Shown here: positions 13,801-54,700 of the stretch, one piece after another
Layout of the letters: the number at the start of each line of letters is the position of its first letter
Position numbering within the stretch: position 1 is the stretch's first letter
Assembly (NCBI GenBank): GCA_050084515.1
Contig: CM114271.1
Location: 48,484,001-48,548,000, forward strand
Reading direction: 5' to 3'
DNA length: 64,000 bases
Source of the DNA: Blasia pusilla
Taxonomy: Eukaryota
Translations under genes and position numbers: made by a program
Notes under the pieces: generated by a model
What the model was told of the DNA's origin: nothing
The model's input: only the letters and a program-made list of their open reading frames with translations
Databases searched by the model: none

Positions 13801-14100
13801 AAGCGTGTCTGATCGACACCCCACATCTGGTTATTCATTTACCTTGGGAAGCGTAGCTATAAGTTGAGTTTCAAAGAAGGAACCTACAGTTGCTTTATCC
13901 TCAACAGAGGCTGAGTACAGAGCAACCAATGCAGCATGTGAGGCGGTGTGGCTTCATCGATTACTTGTTGAGATTGGTGTTAGTAACTTAGGACCTTGCG
14001 TAATATATACAGACAATATTATTAGTATCAAGCTTGCTAATAACCCTGTGTTTCATGCTGTACAAAGCATGTTGAGGTGCACTATCATTTTATCCACTTT
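10867..14100 (+). mobile_element. Truncated Ty1/Copia element (end of gag, PR, INT, RT, RNase H; no LTRs), same family as 17741-23003
   Basis: Zinc knuckle CNYYGIKDHYAKFC, PR IDSGASNHM, WHKRIGHMN, INT FIDDFSRY, RT IGCKWVYK and LYVDDLL, RNase H YADW. There is an internal deletion near 13178. Colinear, in inverted orientation, with the full-length copy. Confidence 0.92.
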
Positions 14101-33480: not shown

Positions 33481-36400
33481 GTAAGTGAACCACATTCGGG
33501 CCTAAAGTTACCTTCTTTTTCCAGGCTTGCAAGAACAAGTAGACATCATAAGACCACTACAAACATCCTTCCATCACTCTCCATTTGAGCCCAATTTTCT
33601 TCACATTGCCTGTCTAAGCCAGCTCTACAGTAAGCCGGGCTGAGGGGTATTAATGTCGGAGGATTATCAGCAGATAATTTGAACCAAAGTAGCAATTTCA
33701 TCTCAATGAAAAGTTCAAAACAAGACTCTAACTATTGTCTCAATAGACTCCTATGCCCTTCAAGGTTTAACTACTTAGAAGATGTGGTTGACATTATGGA
33801 TTGTTGACTCTTCTTGCATTAAATATCCCATCCGGTCAATACTCATCCATGAGGAGGTTTTCCACAATAGAAAAAATTCACTCATCACTCATGGTAGCCA
33901 AAGACTTTCATGATATCATTGGATGATGTTGGCTCATGAATGGGTGCATAAAGTATGAAAGACAACTTGGTTTCACCATTCTCTCAGCCATTGAGAAATG
34001 TATGCATCAAGAAGAAAATATGATGAGACTAAGAGGACAATTGAACCAAAAGGTTGATAGCTATCAAGAGTAAAGAGGAATTGATGCACCCATGTCCCTT
34101 CATTCAGACCCTAAATGTCAGAATCTGACAAGTTGCACCCCTTCCAACCCGTCGGAATCCGACAGGTTGCAACTCTTGCAACCCGTCGAAATCCGATGGG
34201 TTGCACCACTTGCAAGCAAGCACACCACAACAAAAGAAGGATCTTGAGAAGTGATTCCATTCCATCCTACAACCCATGAGAATCTGTCTGGTTGGGAATC
34301 TGACATAAGAATCCGATAGGTAGTAGGAATCCAACACGTCTTTGAAATACCGTGTTAGAGGAGAATGGTGTGATGATAATGGGGGAACGAGGCAAAAGTG
34401 AAAAATCCTCCCAAAATGCCTGAAAAGTTGGACTAGCAAGAAAAGAGTGGGATCACTCAAGCAGCCAACCTATCGGAATCCGACAAGTTTCCTGCAAGGG
34501 GTTTAAAATATTGTGACAAGTTGCAACCCGTTGGAATCCGACGGGTTGCAAAATAAACAGCCTCCAGTAGATAGACCAACACAATCGACAAGAACAAAAA
34601 ATAAAATTCAGCAGAAGTTTGCAAAAACCTCATGGTTCAAAAACTTTGTGTCCTTTATTATATCCGAGGGAAGCTCGGAAATGTACATTTGATCTAGTCT
34701 ATGATTTCTTCAGCCTCATCATATATAAATTTACTCCTAACTCTCCTAGATTCCTATACAAAAGGAATGTCTTGGGATACAAGTGGCTCCTCTGGCCGAT
34801 AGTAGACGGGTATTGAAAATGTTGGGGAATTCGAGAGCCTTGGCCCCCCTTGGTACACCATAACGGTCCCATGTAACATGATTTGAGTCCCAACACCTTC
34901 CTCGGTAGTAAATCTTGTATGCTCTGCAAGGTGACACCCATCTAGTATCAATATGTGCTCCGTCCTTGGAAAGCACTAAATCCCTTCTCCAAAACGCTTC
35001 AATCAAGATGGGTCCAATAAATCTTTGAACTCACTCGTCATCGTCCGATAGCTCTTCCAGAATTACTCTCGGCTTTGCCCTCCCGATTTTTGGAATAGTA
35101 GGAAGTGACAATGGTGTCACTATCAATGCTGGTTCTAGAACCGAGCTCTCAACTTTGGAGGAGAGTTGTATACTCCCACTAGCCTCTCATAATCCACCTT
35201 TGCCTCTTTGCAAAGGTCAAAAAGTTCCGGCCTTCCCTCAAGGGAGAGTATATTTATAGAAGAGAATTCATCGGCCAATGTGCCAGGCACCTCTAATAGG
35301 CCCCTAATAGGCCCACTAAGTCAAAGACCAAGTCACCCGGCCTTGAACAGAGCTCGATGAGCATTTGCATCAAGGCAGGTGAATTTTCCCTTGCTCCAAG
35401 TAAGGGGGTCCCGTCTTGCATGTAAATTCCAGCGAGGGGATTTTGGAGACTATCTAAGTTGTACCCATCGGAGCATGGATCCACTAGATCCGGGATCTGG
35501 AACACCTGGAAGTTGTGCTCGGGCCTTACAAAGCAGTAGACAAATGAGTGGTCCATCTGTAAACAAGCAGGTAAAAAATAATGTCGGCAAAAAGAAAAAG
35601 CTAGTAGATCCTAAGCTACTCTCCATAAAGTGACACAAAGTGCAAACCGTCGGGATCCGACGGGTTGCTTTTCAACCCGTCATACTAGTCCATACTAATT
35701 ACCAACTCGTCCGAACTTGGCCTATAGGCTTGATAGATAACGACCTGTCGGAGTCCGACGGGTTGTCTTACAACTATAACCCCTTTTTGGCCATAAGCAA
35801 CCCGTCGGAAGCCGACAAGTTGCTCATCTTGCTGGACAGAACCTCCACCGTTTCGAGTGCCATGGTTGGCTTACAACTGAATACAATTGTTCAGAGTTGA
35901 GAAGTTCCTAATATAAGAGCAACTCGTCACTTTCAGACGGGTTGCATCAATCTAGAAACACGGGGAAAAGCAGTGCTAATTGCAATCCGTCAGAACCCGA
36001 CGGGTTGCAGTCAATGGAGACTTGTTGGTGAATTTGCAACCCGTCGCTTTCAGACGGATTGCAACACCGCAGACACAAGCTGTTGGGATCCAACGGGTTG
36101 CATGCATAGATGCAACCCCTTGGAGCCCGACAGGTTGAATTTCAGTTAAACTAAATTCGTATAATAAGGGGACTTACCCGAACTTGACTCGTCGCCGATC
36201 GCAGTGGATACTCATTTTTAATTACCCATGATTGCATCGTCCTCCACTTCAGTGACCTCTTCACGCACTAAAGGTTGAAGAGCTTGTCTTCGCTCCGTCC
36301 AGTGAGGACCAAGAAACAACCCTTGTCACTCAGATATGCGTTGGCAAAAGAAACAGCAGCGCGATGTGGTCGTACGAAAGCGGGACATTCCAGTATGGGA

Positions 36401-37353
36401 CAGTGTCAGACGGATTGTTGTCCCACAAGCAAAACCCAGAAGGAAAATCCGCAATGAGGAGGTCCACCGCCACCTCCTCAACCACCCCATGCACCGTCTA
36501 AGGGGCGTACCCGTTTTGAAGGAGTTTTCGTCCCAGCACGGTCAATTTGTCGATGGCAGGTATCGACTCCTGAGAACTGAAACTCTGCAGCTCATCGACA
36601 AGATGAGTCAAGTGAACAAGTTTATTTGTCCAAGTGGTTGTTTCCCTATGCCTGCCAAAGGGTGATGGAGTGTATTCCACATCCTTATCTCCTCCCTCGG
36701 ACGAACCATGCGCCTCCCGCTTTCGCTTCTCCCGAGTCTGCTTTCGACTTGTGGGAGTCTCTGTTACCTCAGACTCCACAGGAGTTTTCTTGGACGAGGA
36801 CCTGGTCCAGCCATCTCGCCCCGCTTTCCCGGACGATTCCGCCTCTTGCCTTCAGGACTCAACCTCTTTTCTAGAAGACTCCGACTCAGAATTCCTCAAT
36901 CCCCTCGCCTTCCTCAAACCCGCTCTGGATTTGTCTTTGGCGGTGACAACCTTGCCCACCAACTTTGCTCTCTCAAGGGCTTGCTCCTCCGCATCTCCTT
37001 CGAAAAATATTATCAGGTTGCATGAAGTTTGGAATGTCGTCCCTACCTGCAACCACTACATCATACACCACGGGTAGATTTTTTTCTGTAATGTCCTCTG
37101 GGTTGTTGAAGTCCAACCAGATTTGACAATTATTAACCTCCCAGTCAGACATGCCTTGTGCCATCTCCATGTCATATATGGAGAATGCCTCTCCATCAGG
37201 CAGAGAAGCCTATAATTTGCAAGCTGCAATTAATTTTTCAGTACTTGCATTCTTACAATTGATGAGGTACTTGTACACCATCCGCTGGGCAGCTCTTTGT
37301 CGAGATAAAGATCCCGCTTCTTCTTTGCAAAATCCCCTTTTTGGCATCTATTA
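33481..37353 (-). mobile_element. Partial copy 1 of the Mutator-like element: subterminal region and 3' exons of the methyltransferase-fold gene
   Basis: Colinear with ~40146-42450 of copy 2 and contains the 31-bp palindromes. Cut at 37354 by a Gypsy insertion. Confidence 0.8.
35031..37340 (-). pseudogene. C-terminal exons of an N6-adenine/N4-cytosine (beta-class-like) DNA methyltransferase-fold protein
   Basis: VDLLIADFPSG (DPPY-like motif IV, ~36435-36467) is followed by YWN, then AYLSDKGCFLVL (LKxGG-like, ~36305-36340), then ENSPALMQMLIELCSRPGDLVFDLVGLLG (motifs X-I, ~35300-35390). Palindrome-rich intervals behave as introns. Stops and frameshifts are present. Confidence 0.62.
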
Positions 37354-39998
37354 TGTCGTGCGCATACACATCGCTACACAACATACATCGCTGTCACCGA
37401 ACACACACACAATCCCATGCTAACTCATGGCTTCCAAACAACGAGACAAGAAGTACTAAAATATCTCCAATCGCCCCCCTAGTTGGTGGAAAGGTCCCTC
37501 TAACTCCAGATAGCCTTCTACCATTGCGTCCCTCCAGCAAGAGAACACCGGATGGCAAAACATTACGCACTCTCATGATAGTGCGCCCTGCAGTCACATC
37601 CAACATCGTCGGTGCCGTCTGCTGCAAGTAGACATAATCTCCATGATGAAACCTCCAAATAGTTGGTCGATAACCACCACCCCGAATAGTCGCATACCTC
37701 AACGTGTCCCGATGCTACGCAATCGCCAAGTTCTCAAACTCCGTGGGCATCACTCTCCAAAACAACTCAGCCCTCTGAGAACATGCTCGCATCCATACAT
37801 CTGGGTCATCAAGGTCCAGCACCTCACCAGCATCTCGACGAATGGCCGCACGTAAATCTGGCTCTTGGCCATAAAGTAGCAAGTACGGTGAAAAAGACGC
37901 TAAGGATGCCTGCCTACTGAATCTGTATCCCATCCCCAACTAGGGCAACTAGAGGTCCCAATCTCCTAAGTGACCTCTCTGCAAGCCATACTTGCGTAAA
38001 CCCCTCTTCACCATCTGCACAACTCTCTCCGCTAATCCATCTGCCTCAGGATGACCTCGCAAAGTCGTGCAATGGTCGATCAGCGCCTGATCACACAAGG
38101 CCTGGAACTCACCGCGAAACTCGGTACCGGGGTCTATCAACACCTCAGACGGTGTGCCATAATGACTCAGCACTCTGTCAAGGAAGGCATAAGCTACTCC
38201 CTCACTCGCTTTGTCAGGAAATGCAACCAACTCAATCCACTCCGAGAAGTGCTCAATCATCACCAACACATAACAACTGTGACGCTCCATCAAAGGCAAA
38301 GGTCATGCAAAATCCAAACTCCATCTATACCCTAAGCCCATGATTGGTAATGGATGCAACTGTGGAGTTGGAGCATTGAACAATGTTCGGACCCGATCAC
38401 ACACCATACACCTGGCAACAAACTGCTGAACGTCAATCTGCATGCCTCGCCACCAATACTGAATCTTGAGCAAGCTATACAACGGCTTCACCCCAAAGTG
38501 ACCCAACTCCTCCTGGGCATGCTGCACTAGTCATGCTCTCTACAAAGGATGCGGCACTACGCGTACTCTGCCATCCTCCTAAACCCTCAAAACATATGTA
38601 CTGAATCCCCAACGGAACCGTCTGGCCCATTGTAGGATTTGATCCCGCTATCTAGCATCCACGGTGCTCGCAAGGCTGCAAGTCCGAAGGTACTCCAAGA
38701 CTACTCCATCATCATGAATATCTCGACCATCTGTCGTCTCCCCACTCGTCTCGGGATCCAAGGACTCTCCACTAGACCTCGCCATCGAAGTCTCCACACT
38801 CTGGCTCTCCATAGCCAACATGCCTAAATAGGTTGACGCGTGCCATCCTAGCACCGACTCCTCATCACTCTCTCCATGCCATCGAGCTCAAGTCGCATCT
38901 CGCTGACTCGAGCATGGGTTGCGACTCAACCCATCTGCATCCTGGTTGAGCGTCCCACGTCTATGTACCACATGAAAATCATACTCCTGCAACAATAGAG
39001 CCCATCTCGCAAGCTTCCTTGTAAGCTTGTTGGACTCCATCAACCACTTCAATGGTTGATGATCAGTGATGATGGTAAAGGGATTTCCGAATAAAGTAAC
39101 ACCTGAAATGCGCGACAGCCCACACCGCAGCCAAGCACTCATCCTCATACGAGCTATACTTTGCCTATGTAATATTGTTTGAATGGCTAGCGTAAGCCAC
39201 CACAAACTCTCTACCCTCATCATCATGCTAGGTGAGCACCGCTCCAAGCCCCAACATGCTCCAATCTGTGTGCAACTGGAAAGGACGCCCCCTCATTGGT
39301 CTCCTCAAGATGGGCGCGGATGTCAACATGTCCTTGAGCAACTCAAATGCTTGCTCTTGCTCATCCCCCTAGTGCCACTCGTGATCCACCTTGGTCAGCA
39401 AGGTCAACGCCTTCGCAATCAAACTAAATCCCTTGACGTATTGCCGATAGAAATTTGCCAATCCCATGAATGCCCGAACACGACTCACATCTGTAGGGCA
39501 TGGAATATGTGAGATAGCATCTACCTTTGTCTACTGAACACCAAGGCCCCCTGGGTATATTGTATGACCCAAGTACTCAATCTGGTCGTAGAAGAACTTG
39601 CACTTGTCTGGATGTAGCTTCAGCCCGTGTAATTGCAATCGTCGAAACACCTCCTCTAGATGTCGCTCATGCTCCTCAACCGTGGCGCTAAAGACTACGA
39701 TGTCATCAATATAACACCTAGAAAAATCCAGACCAGCCAAGGTCCTATCCATGACCCTCTGAAACTCAGCCGGGGCGTTCTTTAACCCAAATGGTAGGAA
39801 CCGCCAATGGTACAAATAATCCTTCTCGTGAGGATCGATGCCCCAAAATGTCGTCTTCTGCCTGTCTTCCAATCTGATAGGCAACTGATGGTATCCGGCT
39901 CATAAATCCAATGAATTGAAAACCTTTGCATGACCAATCGCATCAAAGATCTCCTCAAGGGTGGGCATGGCATACCTATCAGACTTCGTCTGTCGATT
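37354..39998 (-). mobile_element. Gypsy-type fragment RT-RNase H-integrase ending in a single B repeat (PHD deleted)
   Basis: RT LPFGLKNAPAEFQ/CYIDD (39531-39884), RNase H ITDHQPLKWL..NQDADGLSR, and integrase fragments at 37715-38527. G-tract ~37472-37485; the terminus begins TGTCGTGCGCATAC at 37354. Confidence 0.9.
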
Positions 39999-41854
39999 GA
40001 TGAGGTTGGTATTCTGGCAAGAGAGAGGAAGAGATGAGAGTCTCTCTTAAAAAAAAGGGCCAAATCCGCCTCCTCTCTTCAAAACTTTTTGACATATTTG
40101 AAATTTTTGTTTGCTTTCAAATTCATGAAATCTTTAGAAGAGAGTAGGTAGTGGTCCACTTTCGGGCCTAAAGAAACCTCCATTTTGCAGGGGGCGAAAA
40201 ACTAGTAGACATCATAAGACCACTACAAAAATTTTCCCATGACTCTCCATGTGAGCCTAAGTTTTTTCACATTGCCTGTCTCAGTCTACAGTAGGTTGTG
40301 CCCAGGGCTAATTTTTTTTGGAGGACCATTGGCAAATAATGTGACCAGAAGTAGCAATCTCATCTCAATGAAAGTTTCAAATAAAGACCAACTTTAAGAA
40401 ATGTGGACGCAGGAGACGATAATTGAATTAAAAGATTGTTAGCTATCTGGAGTAAAGAGGAATTGATGTCCCTTCATTCAGATCCTAAATCTGAGAAACC
40501 GAGAAACTGCACCCCTCCCAATCCGTCGGAATTTTACAAGTTGCAACTCTTGCAACCCGTCGGAATCAGGTGGCTTGCACCCCTTGCAAGCAAGCTCACC
40601 ATAACAAAGGAAATATTTTGAGAAGTGATTCCATTCCACCCTGCATCCACGAAGATCCAACTGGTTGGGAATCCGAAATGGCAATCCGACAGGCTTTAGG
40701 AATCCAACACGTCTTAGAGAAGAAAAGAAGCCTACGACTGGTTTGACAATACTGGGGGAATGAGCCAAAAGTGAATAAGCCTACCACAATGCCTCAGAAG
40801 TTGGTCTCATAGGGAAAGAGTTCGATCACTCAAGCAGCCAACTTGTCGGAATCCGACAGCTTTCCTGGAAATGGTTAAAAAGTTGCAGTGGTGAAAAAGT
40901 GAAAAGTTGCAACCCGTCGAAATCAGACGGGTTGCAAAATAAACATTCTGAGTAGCTAGACAAACACAATCGACAAGTCCAAAAAAAATATTCAACAAAA
41001 TTTTACAAACACCATTATCGTTTGAAAAAATCTTGTCCTTTATTACATCTGAAGGAAGCTCGGAAATGTATATTTGATCTAGTCTATGATTTCTTCAGCC
41101 TCGTCATCTACAAATTTACTCCTAACTCTCCTAGGTTCTTGTACAAAAGGAATGTCCTAGGATACAAGTGGGGCTCCTCTGGCTGATTGTAGACGGGGAT
41201 CGAAAATGTTGGCGAATTTGAGAGCCTTGGCACCTCCTAGGTACACCATAATGGTTCCATGTAACCTGATTTGAGTCCCACCGCCTTCATCGGCAGTAAA
41301 TCTTGTACGCTCTGCAAGGTGACACCCATCTAGTATCAATATGTGCTCCGTCCTTGGAGACACCATCATGTCCTCAGCGAGGTAGTAGGAATCCAACACG
41401 TCTTAGAGAAGAGAGGAAGCCTAAGACTTGTTTGACGAAACTAGGGGAAGGTGCCAAAGTGAAGAAGCCTGCGTGAATGCCTATAAAGTTAGACTAACAA
41501 GGAAAGAGTCCGATCACTCACGCAGCCAACCTGTCGGAATCCGACAGGTTGGATGGAAGTGGTTAAAAAGGTGCAGTGGTCAAAAAGTGAAAAGTTGCAA
41601 CCCGTGACAATCCGACTGGTTGCAACATGAAGTGTCGGAGTACAAAGACGATCACAATCGACAAGACCAAAAAAAAATATTCAACAAACTTTTACTAACA
41701 CCATCATCGTTTGAAAAAATCTTGTCCTTTATTACATCCAAAGGAAGCTCGGAACTGTACATTTGATCTATTCTATGAATTCTTTTGCGTCGTCATCAAA
41801 TAAATTCCTACTCCAAAATGCTACAGTCAAGCTGGGTCCTTGAGTTCTTTGAAC

Positions 41855-44800
41855 TCACTCGTCATCGTCCGAGAGCTCTTCCAGAATTACAATCGATCTT
41901 GCCCTCTCGATTTTCAGAATTGTGGGAAGTGAGGATGGTGTGACTACCAATGGTGGGTCTGGAACCGGAGCTGTGGGCTTCCGAGGATAGTTGTATGCCC
42001 CAACTAGCCTGTCGTAAGCTGCCTTTGCCTCTTTGCAAAGGTCAAACAGTTCTTGCCTTCCCTCAAGGCAGAGAATGTTCCTGCCACTCTGCCAGGCGTC
42101 TCTGATGCACATCCCTAAAAGGCCCACTAAGTCGAACACCAAGTCACCCGGCCTTGAGCAGAGTTCGATGAGCGTTTGCATCAGCGCCGACGACTTTTCG
42201 CTTCCTCCAAGTAAGGGGGTCCAAGTAGATTTTTCTCGGTTATGTCCTCAGGGTTGTTGAAGTCCATCCACATGGGGCAATTCTCCACCTCCTAGTGAGA
42301 CATGCTTTGAGCCATCTCCATGTCGTACATGGAAAATGTTTCTCCATCAGGCGGAGAAGCCCACAATTTGCAGGCTACCGGTATTTTTTGCCACGTACCT
42401 GCATTCTTACAATGGACGAGGTACCTAAACACCATGCGTTGGGTAGCTCTTAGTTGAGATGCATCGGCCGCCTGCTCTTGAAGATCTTGCTTTTTCTTTG
42501 CGAAATCCCTTTTCTTCGCCTCTATTTCTTCATCAAGGTCTGCTTGAGGGAGGATGTGATCCTTGAACATTGTCTTGAAGCCTGGTTTTTTTATGGGTTT
42601 TTATGTGCATGTCATCCAGCCAAAGTTCAAAATCTTCAGCACTCTCCAGGTTTGCTCCTCCGGAACTAGCTCTATTTTTTTCAGCTCCGCTTGGTGACCC
42701 ACAAGCATGGACTTCCCGAGAAGCCGCAACGCGTCCGAGAATGACCATTCACGGAGCCAATGGGAGATCATTGGATCAGAGACACCCGGAGGATGGTGTG
42801 CCGCCCTCTTTTGGGCCTCTGTGCCCTCGAGACTGATTTTCATCAGTCGGATTCTCCTAAATTCTGAAATTCCAGACAAGGAAAATCAATGGACGCGGTC
42901 AAGAGACACTTTCTCCCCAATCAGACCTTGCGGATCTTCATCCCTCTTCCGTTGGCGCTTGATTATCGCCTTCAGCTCCTTGTAGAAATCGGGGCCAAGT
43001 TTGGGGTTGAGAATGGCAATGTAGCGATGCATCTTGCTTGCAGTGTACTTCGTAGCTGTAGATACTATAGCTTGGATGAACTTAGCATGCTCAGACACAG
43101 ACACTTTCTCCCTCCGCTCCAGCTCCACTGAAGCGCTCTTCTTGGCGGCATGTATCTTCGACCAGCAAAGGATTGTCACGGGTGCATCTTGGGAAATAAA
43201 TGTATTTGCCCAAGTCTTTTTTTTTTTATTTGAGCCCTCTTTGCCAGCATCTCATTTACAAGGGCATCGCCCAAGAACCCCTTGTACTATGCCGGGTGCG
43301 TCGTTAGCACTTTCTTCACCCGATCGTAATCTTGGGACCAGTGGTGGGTGATATTCCCCTCGGATACAATCCTGCACATCCAAACTCAAAATAAGAAATT
43401 TTGCAAGCTATATGGGTTCCTGCAACCCGTCGGACTCCAACAGGTCGTCACACCTCATGGTCAGAATGGTAGCTATGAGCTAAATTTTGCAACCCATCGG
43501 AGTCAGACTGATTGCATTCAGATTTGTGATTGTCTGGTTTCAACCCGTCGGGCTCCGACGGGTTGTTAGATAATTTGTATTCACAGAGTGGTCTCCGCAA
43601 GAAAAGTGAACATATCAGCCCGTCGGAGTCCGACAGGTTGCGCAATTTCAAGTAAAGCTGCAATTTGATGCCAACAATCAAGCTCCCCTACTTCGATCAC
43701 CTTCCTGTGCCAGCAAATGCAACCCGTCGGAGTCCGACGAGTTGCTTTCGGCCAAAAACATCCTAAAAACAGCGGCCAGTTGAGCAACTCGTCGGACTCC
43801 GATGAGTTGCTTTTGGCCAAAAACATCCTAAAATAACGGCCAGTCGAGCAACTCGTCGGACTTCGACAAGTTGCTTTCGGCCAAAAATATCCTAAGAACA
43901 GCGGCCAGTCAAGCAACTCGTCGGACTTCGACGAGTTGCTTTCGGCCTAAAACATCCTACAAACAGCGGCCAGTCAAGCAACTCGTCGGACTTCGACGAG
44001 TTTTGTTACCACTAGTTAAACAACTCTTTGGAGTCCGACGATTTGCAGCAAACAAAATAAAGGAAGAGGAAACTTACATGTTCATGGCATGGATGGCCAT
44101 CTCCACCGTCGCCATGTGATGAGGATATGGATGTAGCACGACTGCCTTCACGCAAAAATGCGCCTCCAATGAGTTTTGGCGCTCCTATGCAAATTGGGTC
44201 CACGCCATGAACATGTGGTTTCCATCCCAGATGAAAAAATACAGCTTCCGCATCCAGCTGAATTTCGTCCCCTCAATCGCCCTTATGAATTCCTGATCTC
44301 TCATTCTCCAGAATGTGTCGAGCGCCTCCAAGTCCTCCTCCGTCACCAGCGCTGGGGTTCCATGTTCATCATAAGGCTGAACATAGAACGGAGGGAAGTT
44401 GTCGACGTAGGATGCTGTCGCTGCCGATTGTTTCGCACTATCCTCGTCAGACTGAATTTCGCGGACGTACTTCATTGTCCGCAATCGTCAAAGTGGAATT
44501 CTCGGGGCGTTGTGGCCCTTCATCAGTGCCATCTACTTTACCACTTGTCACAACGGGGACAAGGTCAATAAACTACACTGAATTCCCAATGAATTGCAAC
44601 ATGGGCCTTCACATAACTCAAAGAACAACGATTGTATCTTACTCGCTCGAAGATTGGGTCGGTGTCTTGGCCTGCCAACTGCTTTGGGACAGCAGCTGGT
44701 AAGTCCATTGGAAACTCGTCGATGCGATAGAGGTCGATTTCTTTCGCCAGGCTAAGAGACGAGGAAGACCGCTCTCCTGCTTCTTCATAGATGTTCATCA

Positions 44801-45004
44801 TCTCCACGCTAGCGGTCCTCATGACCTCATCGTCCGTCACTTGAAGTTTGCCTGTTTCCTCAGCCGAATTTATATTGATTGTATCTCGATCTCTTGCTGC
44901 CTTATCTCATTGGCCGAATGAGACCCTGGAGATGGTGACGCAGGAGTCCTGGACTTGGGAGTGAAGCTCCCAGCCTTGCTTGCTTGAGTTTTTTTCCTCG
45001 TCAT
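41855..45004 (-). pseudogene. Spliced accessory gene: ParB/Srx-like domain + helical region + methyltransferase-fold C-terminus (central MTase exon deleted in this copy)
   Basis: Start MTRKKTQ at 45004. ParB-like PPFYVQP...FFIWDGNHMFMAW (44185-44484); donor GTAAG ~44078; exons ~43200-42230. C-terminus EKSSALMQTLIELCSRPGDLVFDLVGLLGMCIRDAWQSGRNILCLE. Confidence 0.65.
43718..44045. repeat. Tandem array of ~60-bp units each containing the MULE palindrome (intronic)
   Basis: GCAACTCGTCGGACT(C/T)CGACGAGTTGCTTTCGGCCAAAAACATCCTAAAAACAGCGGCCAGT is repeated about 5 times. Confidence 0.9.
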
Positions 45005-45274
45005 TGTTCCCGAAAATGCCACCTCCTCGACAAAGAAATTACTTTCTGTGCACGATAAGTCGCCTCGATGAGTCACCTTGATGAGTCGCCCAAATCGTCT
45101 CGCGATGAGTCGTCGTGTAAAGCGCCCCTTGGTATCTGGTCCGCTACTACGCTAAAGAGCAATCGAGATCGCGAAATGAAAAACCTGAAATGAGCAAACC
45201 CTAGCCTATTTATGCTTTTCAAGTAGTTGGGTCGCACCGTCGTTTTGACAGCGACGTGTCGGCCATTATGGAGG

Positions 45275-46491
45275 TGTGATACCCACAATTTTGTAATCTT
45301 GAAGAATATATCTTTTTATTCAACGAAGACTCTTGTATATTATGATTTTTATTATGATTATTTATTATTATGAGGAAGAATAAGTGAATCACGAAGCTCC
45401 TGGGACAAGGCAGAGAGATGGAAGATCAAGGATTTGCCTTAGAGGAGAGGAAAACGCAATAACGAAGTCTCAAGACTCAGAACGAAGCTTAACAAAGCTT
45501 AACGAAGCTTAACGAAGATGTACAAAGCTCTATTTTTTAAGTGGTTCGCTACATAACGAAGCATCACGAAGAAAAGAAGAAAGAAGTACTTCGCTCTTTA
45601 ACGAAGCACAGGAGATAAGAACGAAGCATGGAGTACTTCGTCCTCCTGAAGTCCAACAAAGAGAAGCTAAGAAGGATTGTGATTTCAAGAGACACATGTT
45701 AAAACAGTTAGACTAGGAAAGGGCGCGATCCTTTGTATCAAATTGGTATTTAGGACAGTTTTGTACTGCGGATTCAAAGGGATCACAGGAAAAGCTAAGA
45801 GAACCATAGATCTAGGTAGTTAGAAATAGTGAAGAGACACTAGCCTCATCAAGAACGTTTCGAATCTTAGGATCACTTCCACTCCAGCGAATATTTAAGA
45901 AGCAAGGCAGAAGCCATAATCATCATTCTCTTACGAAGTCCTTATGTTGTAGGAATGGTCCGAGCAAGAGAGTAGTACCCTCTCAAGCTTGTATACACTT
46001 TGAAGCTTTCTCGTTCTTGATGGAGTAGTAAAGCAATCATTCATTCATTCTGATGTGCGATGCTTATGTCTGAGTATTCTTTTTGGGTCTGCAGAGTGAA
46101 GAGTGAATCAGGAGAACCTTTCTCATCAGTGAAATAATCAACCTGAGTTGTAAGAAATGTGTTTGACAGAGAGTAACCTGCCGAGACGGATTGAGTTCCG
46201 AAAGTAGGAGAAGCTAGCTTTTGTGTTGAGATCTCTGTGAGGTTTCTTGATGTCGAGAGGAAAATCTACCTGAACATCCTGTCAATTCCACTAGAGAGCA
46301 TTGAGAACAGGTCCTTTGGTTCTAAGAAAGATCAGAAGATATTGATAAGACATTGAATATAAATCACACACAGTTACATACAACTATTACAACAAAATTG
46401 TAATTCCAAACTCTCTTTTCATCAAACAATGATCCTCTTGGGGATCGAACCTATTAAAATGACTATAAACTAAAAACACTTGTACATTAGA
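45275..46491. mobile_element. Solo LTR with 5-bp TSD, inserted between the two MULE genes
   Basis: GGAGG at 45270-45274 and 46492-46496 flanks TGTGATACCCAC...CTTGTACATTAGA. Homologous to 4904-6196. Confidence 0.9.
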
Positions 46492-47295
46492 GGAGGTCTG
46501 GACCTAAACTACCAACGCGACGGTCTCCGACGGGTTGGAGGCATCCGTTCTAGCCGGGCTATCATGGCAACCTGTTAGAGTCCGACAGGTTGCGCGCCTT
46601 TGCCGTCTTGGGGGAAGAACGAAAGGTACCCGCGCGACCCGTCAAAGACCGACCGGTTGCACCCTTCCCTCGTCTTGGGATAACAAGGCGGGGTACCTAC
46701 GCTACTCGTCGGAGGCCGACGGGTTGCACGCTTCCCTCATCTTGGGGTAATAGGCGAGGTACCTAGGCAAATCGTTGGTTACAGACACGTTGCACTCTTT
46801 TCTATCTCTTGGGTAACAATGCGATAACGGATAGTTCCGAGGCAACCTCTTGCAATCCGACGGGTCACAAGGTCTACTTTGAGTTGGAAAATCCCATAAC
46901 AGTCCCCAATGATTAGTTACCTTAGCAAATGTAAGCGATGTCTCGTGTTTGATGCTAGCAAAATCGTCTCAATAGACCACTAGTCGGCATAAAGGGGGTA
47001 CCAACCCAACGGACTCTGACTGCTTCCAATTTGCATTGGGACAAGGAAACAAAAAACGGAACTGGGTGCTTCTCAACCCACGTCTCTGATTCCCAAATTC
47101 TGCAACCCATCGGACTCCGACAGGTTGCAACAGAATTGAATCCATCATGTCAAACAATCTCACCTACCAAACTTCATCTTGTCAGGAGAATCTGAGTCTC
47201 TATTCACTATAAATTGAACATTCTCATTCTCATTCCCATACCCATTCTTATCCTCATTCTTATTCTATGTCTCCTCTCGGTGGAATCTTCTGGGA

Positions 47296-50200
47296 ATGGA
47301 TAATTATGTGAAGCTCACTTGTGGCAGTCATCTAGCAGCCCTTCCTCAATCGGAAATTGTTCGACCGCAAGCTCGTGAGTCTTTCATACCAGTGGATGAA
47401 TTTTTTCTCTCAATTCGATTTTTTCTCCAAATTGGAACCATCTTTGTGTCCAAGGATGGTAGGGTGGACGGTACGGAGGACATAATAGGTGAGATAATCC
47501 AACCAGTGATTGCAGACCATAAAGTATGGAATCTCTTACCTCTAGCAAATGGTCAATACAGAGTTTATGGCTTGCCTCTGAATTCCTCTGTTTCCCAAGT
47601 AGACGGTCGAGAATTTCCTAGTGCACCGAGCTCTACGTTTGCAACTCCTAGCTCAGTAGATCCAGCATCGACTCCAACTTCACACGTTTGTTACAATGTT
47701 GTCCTTCAAGAAGAAATTCCCGATGTTTTCAACCTCAATGGATCGGTCGGACACCAACCGGGCCCTCTGTCTGCCTACTCGGTCTTCTTGCGGATATCAG
47801 GCAATAGTTTCCTTTATCTCTGGCCTTGAAAATGTTCAAGCACATTCTTGTCGACGAGCTGCCGCCCACGTACGATGGTAATTGTATTTTTGAGTTGCCT
47901 CCACTTGCTGCTCCTGCTCAAAAGAAAGATGGAGGACGCTTGAAGGGTATGGACAGAAAGTCTGATTGTCATCGACGGTGCAGGCTTCAACGGACTAGTG
48001 CTTCAATTCTAGATGGTCCTTGGATTGTCTCCTGCCGCCAATGCGTTGGAGCCTTGGAGTGTAGAAGTCCAGCATGCCCGTATCTAGAGTACAACGGGCG
48101 GGTCAATACTTCGCAATTCCCCCCCAAGAATGCAGAAATTCCATATGAGGTTGGTGCCACCATACCGCCGGGAGGCCATCAATGTTCTCATTGTCAAGCA
48201 TCCCCTTTCTGCGTTGGAGTGTGTCCTGCATACATATTTTTCATTGTCCACGACTTGGGCTCCACGTCAGAATACACAAGGATGGCAGTTCTTGTTGGCT
48301 CCCACACTCATCCTGTGACCGATGCAATTCACAGACACATCAAGGAGGATGTGGCGAAGAAAGTGGCCAAGGTCTTCAGAAAGTCTTCGGGTTCAAAGCT
48401 TGGAGTGATCAAGCTAACAACAACATCACAAATTTGTGAACAATTGCTTGGAATCCCTGGACAGGGCGAGATCACGGCTGCTGAGGAGAAACAACTCTGG
48501 GAAAATGTCGCATTTCTCGCTAATCCCGAATGCTTCCGGAATTTGCTGTGTCAAATACGGGTACTCGATGGAAAGATGGCCGAAATGGATGCCATTTTCA
48601 GAATCAAGTCTAACTCTAGATTTCCATTCATTCAAAGATGGCAGTTCATGGATCAGGGAAGCAAAGGATCCATGGCCTATGTCTTCAAAATGTCAACGAC
48701 AGGTCCGTCGAGTGGCCTCGATCTTATAGATCGAATGAGGGAAGAGGAAGATCTTTACGGCAGCTGGGTAAGCTTTGATATTTGCTACAGAGTGTTGAAC
48801 GGATGGTTGACAATGGGTGCTCACATTTATGACCATGTGGAGAAGGGACTCAAAACTATATTTGTCTGTGAAGTAAAAACAGAAGACGTTGGAAGTTTGA
48901 AGATGTGTTGGTTACTCTTCTTGGAGGTGGTGAAGGAAAACAAAAGGCCACCTCCGAAAATTTATGGGTTCATGGCGGACAATGCACAACCTGGGTGGAT
49001 TGCTATCAGGGAAGTTTTTTGGGGTGGGGAGGTTCAACCGGAGAGAGAAAGGTTGGATGCTTTCCATTGGCAACAGTCTATGACCCGCTACACCAAATCT
49101 TGCATGAAGGAGAATAAGAGGACGGAGCATGTCACTCTACTCCAACGCTGCAAGGACAACAAAACCTTGAAACACGCCATGGAATGCCAAGAAGAAATTC
49201 ATGGGTGGTGGAGGAAACATGCGATTGAGGAGAAGAACAAAGAGTTATGCTCTTGGTTGAGTTGGTGGACTCAACAAATGAGACAATGGGGAAACTTCAT
49301 GCGGGAGGTGAGTGCACTAATTTGTCTCATTGAAAATTGTTTGAAGAGTTGCAGCTAAAGGTGAGAAGCGTGGGCACTATAGGGATTTCAAACCGAAGAA
49401 ACCAAGCACCTTGTCGGATGCAACAGGTTGACTCCCTGAGTGTTCAACCCTTTGCTTACCGACAGGTTGCAATGTGTGCAACGAGTCGAAATCCGACGGG
49501 TTGCAAGTCGCACGGCCAAATTTACTTGCAACCCGTCGAAATCAGACGGGTTGACGGGTTTCCTGAGAGTGCAACCGGTCGGAAAAGGACGGGTTGCAAG
49601 TCACATGGCCAAATTTACTTGTAACCCGTCGAAATCCGACGGGTTGCACTAGGTGGTTCCTGGGTGTTGCAACACGTCGGAAACCAACGGGTTACAGAGT
49701 CATTCATGGGATGCCTCCAACTTGCAACTCGTCTGGTTCCGACAGGTAGCTTTTTTCTTTGCTCATAGAGCTATTTTGGTTCCCTTCTCACAGTGCCGTT
49801 GTTGGAGGGATTGAACATTCATGAAAATGACCTATGCCCCAACACAAGTGGAGCAGAAAGTGTTCATTCCTCGTGGAGGTCGTCACAATCATGCCAAAGA
49901 ATTTCACTTGTGGAGGCATGCCAACAAGACCAGGCAAGAGCAATGCTACAATATGCAGCATCCCATATCTTCCTCACAAAAGGCATAACAAAAGGAAGGG
50001 GGCCTTCGATCTACAAGCTCTATGTCAAGGCGGCTGTGACATCGGGTGATGAGAAACTCTATGTGGAAGCCTTCAATCGATGCGTAGCAGGAACTCCCCT
50101 CGAGCAAGATGTACACATTGGTGGGGATATTCGTGGGCGCGTTTCAAGACGTCCCATACAGATGGTGGTAGAGCAATCCAAGCGAGACTCGTGGAGACCA

Positions 50201-51310
50201 GATAAGTATCTTGACTTCAGGCACGTGAAGAGGCAGCATCGAGGAACGAATCCGGTGATTGATTTGGATGAGGAAATTACGCCGCCCAAGTATTCGGGGA
50301 CCCCGGATTGCTCCCAAATCCGTGATGGAGTAACTTCTCCAAAATCAGTGAATGTTTTATTTCAAAAGCCCTACGTTGCTGGAAGTTCGCAACATCCGAT
50401 CGCTGGGGTGGTTCAACAATATGGGATTTCGGTCATGGAGGTGGATTGCAACATGAAACGGTGGCATATATCTCGAAGCAACCCTGGATGTGGACCCACT
50501 TGCAGGGCAGGATCTGATGGCATTAGGAGAGCATGCGGCACTTTCCTAAATAAGAATTGTATAAGGACTGGACGACCACTGCATGAGTTTTGGGGACTCA
50601 AAACCTTTGATCGTTTCACGAGGACCGCGGATCAATTGAAGTACTTCTTCTGCCCAAATGAATCTTGCGCTTTCCGCAAGTCTTATCTGGTTGCCATTGG
50701 AGCTTCAGGGAATACCCCCACGATTTGGCCCATCGCCGTAGGTAAGAATTGCACTCAAGACAAAGTGGACAATCTTACAAGTGTCAGTTTCAGACTCGTA
50801 GACGGAGGAAGTTCATAGCATGTTCGCATTATAGAGACCTTCACATTTTGTATTCAACCCAAGATTGACGTCAACATGTACCCGTAGAAGGTGGATGATC
50901 TCAATCCACTATTTCTGTTTGAGTCTAGAAATGGGGTGAAGAGAAACAGAATGTGTAGGCCAACAGTGGAGAGAGCAGAGCGAATTGCATCAGCTCGAGA
51001 GTCAAGAATGGAGATCATCGCCACAAAAGATGTCCACAGTGGCAATGGAATAGGAAGGATGTATTGGGTGAGAAACAACAGTGTAAATTTAAGTGTCACA
51101 GGGGTGTATGTGGCGCACATCTGTTGCTTTCCCACATGTTCATGTGATGACTTTGTTCAAAGAGAGACAAGTGGCAAAAGAAATTTCCCTTGTAAGCACA
51201 TATACTATGTGTTGCTTGTAGTTTTAAGAGAGTCGGAGGTAGGAGTAGGAATCCACCAACCAATTCTGTCCCTCAAAGAAGTGCGAAGTATTTTAAACAA
51301 ACCACTTTGA
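47296..51310 (+). pseudogene. Mutator-type DDE transposase with N-terminal GCM-like zinc domain and C-terminal SWIM finger (spliced, frameshifted)
   Basis: Cys/His domain CVGALEC..CPY..CSHC..CP..GSHTHP. Candidate catalytic residues WVSFD, FMADNA, DAFH (CxxH position) and NTSGAESVHS. SWIM finger CSCDDF..PCKHIYYVL. Intron donor GTGAGT at 49308; frameshift near 47826. Confidence 0.82.
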
Positions 51311-51718
51311 GGATGCAAAATGAGGTTTTAGACTATACTTTTATTTTTCCCGAGCCTTCACTTTGAGCTTGAACTCTATTCAGCCTAGGGCAAATGATAA
51401 ATTTTTTCCAGACCTTGGATGGAAAAAGTGATTGGTTCCACACTTATGATTCCACTGATTTTTTAAGTTTTCTAAATTTTGTGCAATTTGCAACTCGTCG
51501 GACTCAGTGGGTTTGCCAAAATGTGGAAGAGGAAAAAAAAAACTGTGGGAGTGCTTAAGAACTGAGCAGAAAAGTGCAAAAAAATTCACACAAAAAGTTT
51601 TCTCTCTTCAACCCAACGGAAACTCTCTTCAAATCACATGAAACTCTCTTAAAAAAAAAGTATCTCTTTTGGTTGAAGGTAGTTTCCTCTCTCCTCTCTC
51701 CTCTCTTCCTCTCCTCTT

Positions 51719-54700
51719 ACCACACCTCGACTCATCCATACGTCACCTGACCACCACCATGGCCGATAAGCAACGATCTTCTCCCATAAGTCAAGGATAA
51801 ATCTTGGGAGATATAGCACTATACTCCCCACCAACACATCGTAGGACTTAGCTGGTGTCGTAATCGCACGTGTGCGCACCATAGCACTATCCGTCGTATG
51901 CTCTGGCTAGACTCTAACAGCTATCTCCTTTCGAGTCATATACTGCATGGGTAACAGGCCCCCAATCGAGGTCTATATTTGGAAGGGACAAGGCTGAACG
52001 TCGGCCTTCCGTAATCCCAATGCTAAACACGCGGCCGTCCCTAATTTCAAGGGCTGCCTACGCTCCCAAATCAAGTAGGATGCACTACGGGTGGTACACT
52101 ATCCCTGTCAGACTTACCAAGCAAAATACTCCCGCTCGATTATCCAATAACACCACGCTAGGTGTCACCATGGCCCGCTCTATGGCCCGTCGAGTTGGCA
52201 TATCTACCAACTTCGCCGCTGCCGCATGCCATGACTCAATGGGGGACGTCTCGAGCACTTGCTCCGAGGGCAAGTCCACCACCTCCTCAACTACCTCTGA
52301 ACGAGAGGCAATCACCTCTCCATGCTCACACAATGTGGCGGCCAGTCGGAACAACTGAGCTGGTCCAACTCCCAACGTCGCCAACTCTATGGCGGAAAAT
52401 AACGGAGCTTGGCTTACCCTGGTGGCCACCTCCAACAATGTGGTCAACATTGAATCCACTTGAGCCGTCATAGGAGCTGCCACTCCAACTCCTCGTGACG
52501 TCGATGTACCTGCTTGACCTGTAGGCACCTCTGGTCGTCCAGGCACCATCGATGGCGTGTGTAGTGCCTCTAACAACGTGAATGATTGTGGAACCTTGGC
52601 GTGCCATCCATTGGTCCCCTCCCGTGGGTCAATCTCAACTCCACCTCTCGATGGCTTAGTGCCTCTTGCAGCTCCCCGAGTCACCACCGCAACAGTCTCA
52701 ACTTGAGCTGCACTACATGTAAGCCCCATACAAGAAAGATCCTCAACCGGATCAGGGTAAGAGGTGGAAGCTGGAGCCACATTAGCTACTCTTGGCTCCG
52801 TGCCTTCCCTGAGCTGCATCATCGTCATGGCAACAATCCTCTCCTCCAAGTGATCGATGCGCCATCTCTAGTGCTCTCGCTCCATCTCCTCTTGCAGGTG
52901 GTGGTCCTAAACCACCACGTCTAGCAACAACTCCTCAACCTTCTCTAAGACGACCACCCCCAGACCCTTGGCCTACCTCTAGACGTGCCTCTCGACGGAG
53001 GTCAAAACATCTATCCCTAGTGTGACCATATTTGTGGCAATAGTCACATTCGTACTGTGGTGGGGCCATCCTCTCTGCTCCTGAGCAATTGGAGGTGCTC
53101 ATGGTCCTCTCCCATGTCGTGGGCAGTCTCTTTGCCTATGGGCCTCTCCAACAAGAGAACATCCGTCCCTTCTGGGCAACATATGTAGGCACCGATTGTT
53201 GCCTAATAGGCTTACGGTACCCGCCCTGCTCTCTAGGCACACTGGCCCCCTCCCGTGGTACTGGTGCTCGTTGTGGCACCTGTGGGGTTACCGTCGCTCG
53301 TGGACCCGTAAACTCTCAAGAAAATCTAGTGGTTACTTCTTGCTCCTCACTCATGTTGACCTCAATACACTTCGACAACTCGAAGACCACCTTCAATGTG
53401 GGCTTTGCTGTGTGAATGAGCACCGCATCTCGGACTCTCCTCCGTAGTTCTTGATCCAGAACCCCGTACCAATACTGGACTAACTGCGCCTCAGTCACTC
53501 CCAATGATCAACCTTCTCATGCACGTGAATGCCTCTTTGAGACTCTCACCTGATCGTTGCTGAAAATTGTATAGACTCTTTAGCTTGTCGGTGCGTAAGC
53601 CCTGGGTGCGTAAGCCCTGGTAGCTCTTTCCCAACGGTTGGAAGAACTCCACTGTGGGAATGAAGCTAGATGGCCCTCTACCATCAGAGGTCTGTGCCAT
53701 GTTGTCTATCTCACTGCCCTCCTCTCCATCTACTCTCCGGGCTGATGGTGTGGATCCTTCTCCTCTCACGATCCCATCATATGCCTCGCGACCACTAGTG
53801 GACACATACCCTGGAGCCCAATACATCCTCCAGGCATCAATCTCTACTGAATATAGTGATCAAAACTCCATGTAATCATCCATCGGAGGACCCTTCAAGT
53901 GTTGGAACAACCCCTTCCATGCCATGAGAGGGTTGAACCGTGTCGGGATCCGTATCTCGTGGAAATTGCACCACGTGTCAAACTCTGGATGAAGTCATCT
54001 AAGTCGATGGTGCCCACTACACCCGAGAAACGACGCATGCCCCGATAGCCCATGTCGTCCATCTCCTGCCAAGTGACATTGACTCCGTCTGCGATCTTGT
54101 CATGAGACCTGCTGTCCAATGATGACGATCCAGCCAAGGATGGAAGTCTAGGTAGCTCCTCACTCGTAACCCTTCTGTATCTCACTCCACTCCGTGTCAC
54201 ACCACTACTAGTGCTCGCACTACCCCGTTTTTCCGAACCCGGGAAGAACGCCGTGATGACAACTGTGTCTCACCCGCTCAAGCACTCAGACTCACCAAGA
54301 GTCTTCCACACTCCTCACTAGCTCACCTACGCTAATGGTAATCCCATGACGACACACCCGGCCTCACGCACACTCAACACTTGGGCTCATCGTGAGCCTT
54401 CCAACAAACTCACTTAAACTATCGACACTCTCGAGTCATACACGTGAAACCTACTCGGAAACCGCCGTATATCCACAAACATGCTACATATGCATGGAGA
54501 CTATACTTGTCACCATCGTTACATCCATCTAGCCCCAGCAACTACCCAATACCCAACACTCTCAATCACATAAGATAAGTGTGGGAAAAGGGACTCGAAT
54601 GGATAACTTGATCACGCCCTCCAACCTACGGCACCGTCAACACTCACTCCTCCATGTGGTATGGCAACCTCCGCAACATGACACTCTCCTTGACACACAT

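Follow-up and report, generated by a model that had tools for sequence, protein, structure and literature searches.

A probable Mutator-type transposon of Blasia pusilla with an accessory gene partly homologous to beta-class DNA methylases

To our knowledge, few transposons bring along genes of their own for DNA modification or anti-silencing. The cases known are VANC of Arabidopsis, the TET/JBP genes of fungal elements, DNA methyltransferases (DNMTs) of certain retrotransposons, and the red-algal PAG genes. In the description given by the Bostrychia preprint (bioRxiv 10.1101/2025.02.11.637652), PAG2 and PAG3 are carried by red-algal Plavaka elements and also by Chondrus Mutator, Zisupton and Fanzor elements. 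PAG2 is composed of a PF01555 methylase and a SET domain, PAG3 is composed of a ParB-like N-terminus (HHpred E 0.29 only) and a 2-oxoglutarate (2OG) oxygenase, and tandem inverted-repeat arrays adjoin PAG3. The VANDAL elements of Arabidopsis are described as Mutator-like elements (MULEs) without clear terminal inverted repeats (TIRs), and their accessory protein VANC acts on tandem motifs in the non-coding DNA of the element itself (PMC5735166; PMC6446971). DIRS1 retrotransposons keep an inactive methyltransferase domain with substituted catalytic and substrate-binding residues, for which a non-catalytic role has been proposed (PMC4738411). Phage ParB-Tls loci are described as having given methylases to eukaryotes more than once. 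Here we describe a locus of Blasia pusilla (assembly GCA_050084515.1, contig CM114271.1) in which a gene related to PF01555 methylases lies opposite the gene of a likely Mutator-like transposase. The locus occupies positions 33481-51718 of the window, that is, the 64,000-nucleotide stretch 48,484,001 to 48,548,000 of the forward strand; all positions below are those of the window.

We consider it reasonably probable that the locus holds a dead copy and a truncated older relative of a high-copy Mutator-superfamily transposon with a methylase-derived accessory gene kept by selection. Such an element would be about 10-12 kb long with terminal repeats absent or decayed, and its two genes would be transcribed outwards, in opposite directions, from a central region common to both. 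On the plus strand, the gene would encode a MULE-type transposase with a cysteine-rich N-terminus, a DDE core and a SWIM finger. The minus-strand gene would encode an accessory protein of about 900-1000 residues, whose C-terminal domain would have descended from a beta-class (PF01555) N6-adenine/N4-cytosine DNA methyltransferase. The accessory protein presumably no longer methylates DNA, and it may be a DNA-binding or adaptor module that serves the element. By analogy with VANC on the VANDAL tandem motifs, its most likely target would be an element-specific 27-bp palindrome found in introns, in the inter-gene region and in the left flank. Bound to the palindrome, the protein might aid transposition or prevent silencing of the element.

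Sequence comparison shows homology between the C-terminal ~55-70 residues, encoded by the last exon of the minus-strand gene, and the beta-class N6A/N4C DNA methylases. The query was the minus-strand exon frame 41855-42247 of copy 2, the fuller of the two element copies. PF01555 was the only Pfam family that it matched (E 1.2e-3, 19.3 bits, profile positions 165-220 of 221). The same family was found with the last exon of copy 1 (E 0.079, 13.3 bits) and scored 15.2 bits in a three-frame read-through of the minus strand. Among PDB sequences the beta-class methylases ranked first and made up four of the seven matches listed, namely M.RsrI twice (E 0.01) and DpnA twice (E 0.18). BLASTP against the methylase L003 of the E. 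coli O157 (Sakai) prophage, which was confirmed as a PF01555 member at 149 bits, gave 19/53 identities (36%), with E 2e-7 for that single comparison. Our own hidden Markov model (HMM) built from five real methylases scored the last exon at 24.7 bits, hhalign aligned the exon with methylases at 95% (E 4e-8), and four DNA-methyltransferase families of PHROGs were matched (best E 4.7e-4). AlphaFold2 (AF2) run without an alignment modelled this exon with a predicted local distance difference test (pLDDT) score of 40.9, too low for a fold search.

An earlier sequence-only reading had proposed a beta-class amino-methyltransferase fold for the gene. This holds for the C-terminal motif X/I/II region, which is homologous to PF01555-type enzymes, but the supposed motif IV half (DFPS, YLSDKG) does not rise above chance. 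The S-adenosylmethionine (SAM) loop of motif I reads VGLLG in both copies, and DLVGLLG aligns to DFFAGSG of M.RsrI and DpFaGsg of the PF01555 profile. The first glycine of FxGxG is therefore a leucine in both copies, as expected from the degeneracy noted earlier. In the alignment with M.RsrI and DpnA, the Blasia sequence retains the PGD..D frame of motif I as well as the glutamate that closes strand 2 (CLE). For motif IV, (D/N/S)PP(Y/F/W), copy 1 alone offers a candidate, DFPS, in which the second proline and the aromatic residue are missing. The motif order IV, X, I is the order of beta-class enzymes. It is compatible with the sequence, as had been claimed, but the alignment of motif IV is uncertain. 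hhalign set VDLLIADFPS on VDLIVTDPPY and YLSDKGCFLVLTG on VLKPAGSLYLFCG in the correct order and in register with the five methylases, at a P of 0.11. The composite of both halves scored 93.3%, no gain over 95.0% for the last exon alone.

The divergence between the two copies bears on whether this region served the element. Their codons, which are few, were compared by simple Nei-Gojobori proportions. Read in the true frame, the methylase-like core had a ratio of nonsynonymous to synonymous proportions (pN/pS) of 0.22 (37 codons) and 0.36 (38 codons), against 1.88 and 4.14, and 3.24 and 0.55, in the off-frames of the same DNA. Upstream, within the middle exon, a block of 53 codons (KIPVACKLWASPPDGETFSMYDMEMAQ..) gave 0.26, and its two off-frames gave 1.22 and 0.60. 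A neutral pattern is suggested for the C-terminal tail (0.78) and for a block of 26 codons (0.82). As controls, six frames of 1085 aligned non-coding bases gave 0.70-1.11. By Fisher's test, p was 3.1e-5 in the core and 4.5e-8 when all 192 codons were taken together, and SRPGDLVFDLVGLLG is identical in both copies. The low in-frame pN/pS suggests that the two copies diverged in large part under protein constraint; as far as codons can tell, the methylase-like region was kept by purifying selection during diversification of the family. Since the SAM loop VGLLG lies within the constrained sequence, this constraint argues against a mere passenger fragment.

The interval 33481-51718 had been taken as a single element. 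Self-BLASTN showed instead a mosaic of four parts, namely the truncated copy 1, a gypsy fragment, the fuller copy 2 and a solo long terminal repeat (LTR) (Table 1). Homology of the two copies starts at the same base (33484 and 40150), their left flanks are unrelated, and the 18-mer CCACWTTCGGGCCTAAAG occurs only at 33490 and 40156, on the plus strand at both places and with no inverted copy. The left end thus appears to be a real terminus. The right end of copy 2 lies near 51700, where it adjoins a CT-rich low-complexity run (51683-51717), and DNA read depth halves in the bin 51206-51800. Copy 2 lacks the segment 35411-37074 of copy 1 because of a 1.66-kb deletion with its junction at 42222/42225. 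In the left flank of copy 2 there is an internal direct duplication of ~430 bp (40697-41122 and 41386-41814, 84% identity), which is a single unit in copy 1 (34318-34737).

Table 1. Features of the Blasia pusilla locus, in window positions
Feature	Position	Strand	Remarks
Copy 1	33484-37306		left end and 3' two-thirds of accessory gene; truncated at 37306 beside gypsy fragment; 78-82% identity to copy 2 over aligned blocks (self-BLASTN)
Copy 2	40150-51718		left end sharp, right end approximate (~51700); contains later solo-LTR insertion
Aligned block, copy 1 to copy 2	33484-33726 to 40150-40388
Aligned block, copy 1 to copy 2	34032-34970 to 40414-41358
Aligned block, copy 1 to copy 2	34977-35411 to 41801-42222
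Aligned block, copy 1 to copy 2	37074-37306 to 42225-42460
Motif WDGNH	44215-44229	minus	copy 2
Motif VDLLIADFP	36441-36467	minus	copy 1 only
Motif YLSDKG	36319-36336	minus	copy 1 only
Motif LIELCSRPGD	42143-42172 and 35332-35361	minus	copy 2 and copy 1, respectively
Motif GRNILCLE	42062-42085	minus
WDGNH exon, copy 2	44077-44487	minus	in-frame TAG 44185-44187; ends at donor AACAT/GTAAGT; read-through P0002, 137 amino acids
Long middle exon, copy 2	42225-43407	minus	one continuous frame; no known domain
Last exon, copy 2	41855-42222	minus	methylase-like region EKSSALMQTLIELCSRPGDLVFDLVGLLGMCIRDAWQSGRNILCLEG; acidic tail; TGA stop 41855-41857
Middle exon, copy 1	36178-37306	minus	charged linker, then VDLLIADFPSG, YLSDKGCFLVLTG and WVIKNEYP, the putative N-terminal half of a methylase fold
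Intron, copy 1	35557-36177	minus	621 nt; GTAAGT..polypyrimidine-CAG; phase 0/0; holds seven palindrome units
Last exon, copy 1	35031-35556	minus	methylase-like; broken by 2-bp gap and 16-bp insertion after LVGLLG; stop 35031-35033
Solo LTR	45275-46491		between accessory gene and transposase; TG..(C/G)A; 1.2 kb; GGAGG target duplication on both sides
Transposase gene	47296-51310	plus	exon 1 to 49307; intron 49308-49768; exon 2 from 49769; SWIM ~51131-51220
Palindrome array, left flank of copy 1	34146-34547		4 units
Palindrome array, accessory-gene intron	35644-36136		7 units
Palindrome array, left flank of copy 2	40840-41621		4 units
Palindrome array, directly downstream of WDGNH exon	43542-44002		7 units, partly 65-bp tandem
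Palindrome array, between the two genes	46514-47126		4 units
Palindrome array, transposase intron	49446-49748		7 units

The transposase is likely Mutator-like, to judge from language-model features and a weak SWIM match. In the ESM Atlas the best clusters for the transposase frame were MULE / ZSWIM RNaseH-like, with scores of 0.95, 0.94 and 0.94, and nine of the ten best family-bearing matches shared family or clan with the best one; the tool rates such matches as leads. The SWIM finger PF04434 was found in the last frame at E 1.7e-3 and 18.3 bits (cut-off 19.6). The sequence shows ..SFD.., ..MADN.. and DAFH in that order, which we take to be the order expected of MULE cores. The Mutator-like assignment had been made before from the letters; the ESM Atlas clusters and the weak SWIM match speak for it, whereas a MULE Pfam match, a TIR and a target-site duplication (TSD) were not found. 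A word-index search with the 516-amino-acid frame 47808-49358 returned one relative, P0001, with 37% identity over 94% of the query; Pfam gave no significant match for either protein. P0001 is a Logan-derived protein of 660 amino acids, and the similarity ends right after WGN(Y/F), where exon 1 meets the intron in the window. Therefore, P0001 is probably a genomic frame reading into the intron at the same position in another organism. The transposase intron has a GTGAGT donor and a polypyrimidine-TAG acceptor and is in phase 0. Exon 2 has two in-frame TAG stops in 50816-50887, and a frameshift lies near 47815, where the frames 47218-47829 and 47808-49358 overlap. Since an extra base at 47815/47816 was found in 235/616 and 248/656 DNA reads (~38%), this frameshift is absent from many other copies.

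Reads came from three stranded RNA runs and one DNA run (X16, ~1/100 of reads used). DNA depth was 383-524 over the accessory gene, 370-511 over the left end and 1093-1249 over the transposase exons. A DNA-read joint, 41600>49631, was present in 182 reads and links two palindrome units with GGAGGA between them. It removes the 5' parts of both genes and keeps both ends, ~1.45 kb on the left and ~2.1 kb on the right, and represents a common internally deleted, probably non-autonomous derivative. The shared palindrome, the similar DNA depth and this joint indicate that both genes belong to one mobile unit. The sequence-only reading had depended on the accessory gene co-occurring with the transposase, and on these grounds the two do share a repeat unit. 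Most DNA reads (59,654/97,269) were 90-95% alike, suggesting that the element family is large and old. In all three RNA runs, minus-strand RNA covered the last exon of copy 1 and its 3' flank (34628-35241; depth 25-27 vs 0-2.8) and plus-strand RNA covered the transposase (48750-49363; depth 6-9 vs 0.6-1.3). Because the RNA reads differ from the window, they come from other copies of the element. Sense-strand RNA from related copies thus exists, at a depth far below that of the gypsy fragment (48-115).

Both copies are filled with a 27-bp palindrome with a free central base (consensus GCAACCCGTCGGAnTCCGACGGGTTGC). With up to 2 mismatches per half-site there are 33 units, all of them (33/33) inside the two copies between 34146 and 49748 and none in the other ~46 kb, and 20 shuffles gave 0-2. 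Many DNA-read joints run between different palindrome units, which suggests that rearrangements between copies concentrate at these units. The centre is GANTC, the site of CcrM/HinfI-type beta-class enzymes, in 10/33 units, and GANTC density is 4.8 per kb inside the element vs 3.8 per kb outside. As the central GANTC follows from the palindrome itself, it is a lead only. A search of metagenome contigs with the palindrome pattern gave 85 loci, none similar to the element by BLASTN or TBLASTN; with a median GC of 58%, they are probably chance matches.

The five peptide motifs from which the accessory gene had been recognized were all present on the minus strand where they had been placed. The gene was said to be a spliced one that can be rebuilt from the two copies. 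One intron of copy 1 (36177 to 35557) can indeed be read from the sequence: the GTAAGT donor at 36177 follows a complete codon, and a polypyrimidine tract and CAG at 35558-35557 precede an ATG in the same phase. To judge from splice-site motifs and phase, this 621-nt intron is the only splice of the accessory gene readable with confidence. Among the other junctions, the one that follows the WDGNH exon fails to join in frame when the best splice sites are used. The frame layout suggests fewer and longer exons than a many-exon model. The 3' part of the middle exon of copy 2 (SPPDGETFSMYDMEMAQ..WMDFNNPEDITEKNL) is also found in copy 1 (37074-37306), and copy 1 continues this exon from 37320 to 36178, with a lysine/glutamate/serine-rich linker upstream of VDLLIADFPSG. 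The TGA stop and the acidic tail are common to both copies (35031-35033 and 41855-41857).

Decay is evident in both copies. The middle exon of copy 2 has point stops at 43252-43254, 42886-42888, 42601-42603 and 42292-42294, and the 1.66-kb deletion shifts the frame of its accessory gene. The continuation in copy 1 has four in-frame stops and two frameshifts (within 37320-36154). With these stops, frameshifts, deletion and indels, both copies of the accessory gene are pseudogenes.

Relatives of the accessory gene were sought in several ways. With the methylase exon, a word-index protein search gave 0 matches among 586 candidates (longer proteins) and tblastn against 50,697 phage records gave no match at E up to 1; the WDGNH exon had no candidate in the word-index search. 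A search of metagenome contigs for related loci gave 230 pattern matches, none of which was confirmed. An exhaustive phmmer search had a sole match to the methylase exon, a 1449-amino-acid internally repetitive protein with 21 matched stretches, which was rejected as spurious.

The WDGNH exon had been read as ParB/Srx-like. That claim was founded on WDGNH alone and was not borne out by Pfam, NCBIfam, PHROGs or PDB sequences. Neither the exon nor its read-through P0002 matched any Pfam family, including PF02195, at E up to 10, any family of NCBIfam or PHROGs at E up to 1, or a ParB or sulfiredoxin among PDB sequences at E up to 10. When the minus strand of both copies was read through in three frames, Pfam at E up to 1 gave PF01555 and two weak unrelated matches, with no ParB, SET or 2OG family. 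The ESM Atlas gave no usable match to the exon, and the AF2 model made without an alignment (mean pLDDT 38.2) was too poor for a fold search. ParB_N itself gave one sub-threshold match only in five bacterial or phage records. The arginine of the ParB DGxxR / GxxRxxA box is conserved, and the box here reads DGNHMFMAW, with a methionine in its place. In the searches made, nothing supports ParB likeness, and the N-terminal WDGNH region is a region without demonstrable family. At the start of this exon, 34-48 reads in each of the three RNA runs match only the 37 nt 44451-44487 and continue on both sides with other sequence (agreement 1.0); they may come from an abundant unrelated transcript sharing the stretch or from a micro-exon used elsewhere.

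Several observations weigh against the reading of a Mutator-type element with a methylase-derived gene kept by selection. No TIR was found: the best local alignment of the left end with the reverse-complemented right region scores 25, and 30 shuffles reach up to 26. Neither a 14-nt TIR nor a credible 8-11-bp TSD is present at the element ends. MULEs without TIRs are described (PMC6446971). No MULE Pfam match (PF10551) was found at E up to 1 for the transposase frame or for P0001. The PF01555 score of 19.3 bits is below the Pfam gathering cut-off of 26.7 bits, and the exhaustive phmmer search of the methylase exon against 1.84 billion representative proteins found no true relative. The read-through pieces of the N-terminal half (P0004 and P0005) had no match in Pfam, PDB sequences, PHROGs or NCBIfam, BLASTP against L003 found nothing for them, and the five-methylase HMM scored them -3.0 and -4.9 bits. 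Mini-profiles of the two N-terminal motifs, run on all 3168 six-frame fragments of the window, ranked 42/2006 (the motif IV alignment) and 1015/2382. Only the C-terminal third of the methylase fold is thus significant, and the protein may hold a mere fragment of the fold. Both copies are pseudogenes, and the N-terminal methylase half is present in copy 1 only. There was no RNA splice joint among the 15 of 372 joints listed, all of which are supported by DNA reads, one with a single RNA read besides. In the codon comparison, pS of the coding blocks (0.33-0.48) exceeds the divergence of aligned non-coding sequence (0.14-0.21), which is odd, on few codons. That either protein binds the palindrome is proposed by analogy.

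The methylase piece might be a functionless captured fragment as in Pack-MULEs, and the minus-strand gene might consist of chance open frames in old repeat DNA. Degenerate catalytic and SAM motifs, stops and frameshifts throughout both copies, the absence of a homologue from every protein search and the limited length of significant likeness (~55-70 residues) would all fit this explanation, and MULEs are described as capturing host fragments (PMC6446971). However, the third-position excess is frame-specific (0.22-0.36 against control ratios of 0.70-1.11, Fisher p 3.1e-5), both copies have kept the acidic tail and the stop codon behind it, the intron is bounded by canonical splice sites whose phases agree, and sense-strand RNA occurs in 3/3 runs, so we regard a passenger as unlikely. 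The WDGNH and methylase-like regions could also belong to two or more separate accessory genes, as in the red-algal cassette, in which the methylase and the ParB-like protein are separate genes (bioRxiv 10.1101/2025.02.11.637652). The junction after the WDGNH exon that fails to close and the lack of an RNA joint among those listed are in line with such an arrangement. Yet everything lies on one strand with no stop-plus-promoter structure between, no SET or 2OG domain was found, and, point stops and two shifts apart, a single frame extends from 43407 as far as the deletion junction and is carried on by copy 1 down to 36178; separate genes therefore seem unlikely as well.

In a true ParB-methylase fusion of the phage or plasmid type, as the sequence-only reading proposed, a WDGNH ParB/Srx domain would bind the palindromes like parS and a C-terminal methylase would follow. 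Such a domain order would fit that described for bacterial fusions and phage ParB-Tls loci, and a seven-unit palindrome array adjoins the WDGNH exon on its downstream side. Because the ParB-like N-terminus of PAG3, which stands beside inverted-repeat arrays, was detected by HHpred only, ParB-like domains can escape HMMER. Against this, neither the family and PDB searches nor the read-through of the whole gene found a ParB family, the arginine after DGxH is a methionine (DGNHM), and a four-residue motif is estimated to occur by chance about once per 20 proteins of such length. We hold such a fusion to be distinctly unlikely. The self-marking proposed in the sequence-only reading would require a working N6A or N4C methyltransferase that marks the DNA of the element. 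In its favour, the homologous fold family consists of DNA methylases, CLE and the PGD..D frame persist, the region is under selection, GANTC stands in the centre of 10/33 palindromes, and red-algal PAG2 is proposed as an N6A methylase (bioRxiv 10.1101/2025.02.11.637652). An active enzyme is nevertheless very unlikely, considering the leucine in VGLLG of both copies, a motif IV candidate (DFPS) lacking the second proline and the aromatic residue in an alignment not above chance, and a central GANTC that follows from the full palindrome and is hardly denser inside than outside (4.8 vs 3.8 per kb). A further reading goes beyond the one we prefer: the transposon may have domesticated a bacterial or phage beta-class methylase as a dead reader of its own palindrome (centre GANTC), for anti-silencing or for marking it for the transposase, in independent convergence with VANC and the PAG cassette. 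In this specific form we find it doubtful.

The rest of the window seems to consist of repeats only, with no host gene among frames of at least 170 amino acids. The gypsy fragment between the copies has reverse transcriptase (RT) and integrase frames on the minus strand, and its limits, 37354 and 40001, were taken from loose read ends. In the stretch covered by reads, both DNA depth (1148-1738) and RNA depth (48-115) peak over this fragment, indicating that this gypsy family is abundant and transcribed. Gypsy-type sequence is also present at 1-544 and 30277-31278. The solo LTR matches 4904-6194, which adjoins a gag-like frame on the minus strand (4275-4835). Two copia-like stretches, 10870-14094 and 18206-21485, are in inverted orientation with 88% identity, and integrase and RT frames lie at 11190-13225.

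Under the preferred reading, the locus adds to the transposons with such genes a Mutator-type family in which a methylase-derived module was kept by selection despite a ruined cofactor loop. The module is without a detectable relative in 1.84 billion representative proteins, and copies of a long palindrome of its own pervade the element. Should the module recognize this palindrome, the two would form a directly testable protein-DNA pair for transposon self-recognition and self-protection, and a fold of bacterial enzymes would here serve a eukaryotic mobile element as a reader without enzymatic activity. A gene that is no more than a decayed passenger would make the finding an ordinary one.

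The closest precedent that we found is the red-algal PAG2/PAG3 cassette of the Bostrychia preprint (bioRxiv 10.1101/2025.02.11.637652), compared here by its description only. In the literature covered, supplementary tables aside, that preprint was the only source of a MULE with a PF01555-type gene. As in that cassette, a PF01555-type gene lies beside the transposase of a eukaryotic DNA transposon, inverted-repeat arrays stand by the accessory genes, and in both cases the proposal of a ParB-like domain had comparably weak support (HHpred E 0.29 in the preprint). The arrays here comprise 33 palindrome units, seven directly downstream of the WDGNH exon and seven in the accessory-gene intron. The Blasia element differs in that the minus-strand frames of its two copies yielded no SET or 2OG family at E up to 1, that its methylase part is below the Pfam cut-off with a degenerate SAM loop, and that its transposase is MULE-like, not Plavaka/CACTA.

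The Blasia gene can be aligned with the bacterial and phage beta-class enzymes M.RsrI, DpnA and L003 over the helix preceding motif I, over motif I itself and over strand 2, with 36% identity over 53 residues, and a candidate N-terminal half lies upstream in the order of the class. In contrast to these enzymes, the Blasia gene has VGLLG for FxGxG, DFPS for DPPY and an N-terminal half that is not significant, and it has introns and resides in a eukaryotic transposon. DIRS1 is likewise a mobile element that keeps a methylase-derived domain with substituted catalytic or substrate-binding residues, but, as described, its domain belongs to the PCIF1-related methylase group and is within a retrotransposon polyprotein. 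MuDR with mudrB, other MULEs with second open reading frames and Pack-MULEs show that a MULE can have a second gene and that accessory proteins vary among lineages, whereas no DNA methylase domain is named for those second frames in the accounts considered, apart from their supplementary tables (PMC6446971, PMC12973397).

VANDAL and VANC offer the functional parallel. By the published description, VANC is not derived from a methylase, and its binding and hypomethylation have been shown, whereas for the Blasia protein both would be expected by analogy; the motif here is a 27-bp palindrome. Like VANDAL, the Blasia element appears to be a Mutator element without clear TIRs that has an accessory protein and has multiplied a short motif of its own, in tandem, in its non-coding parts.

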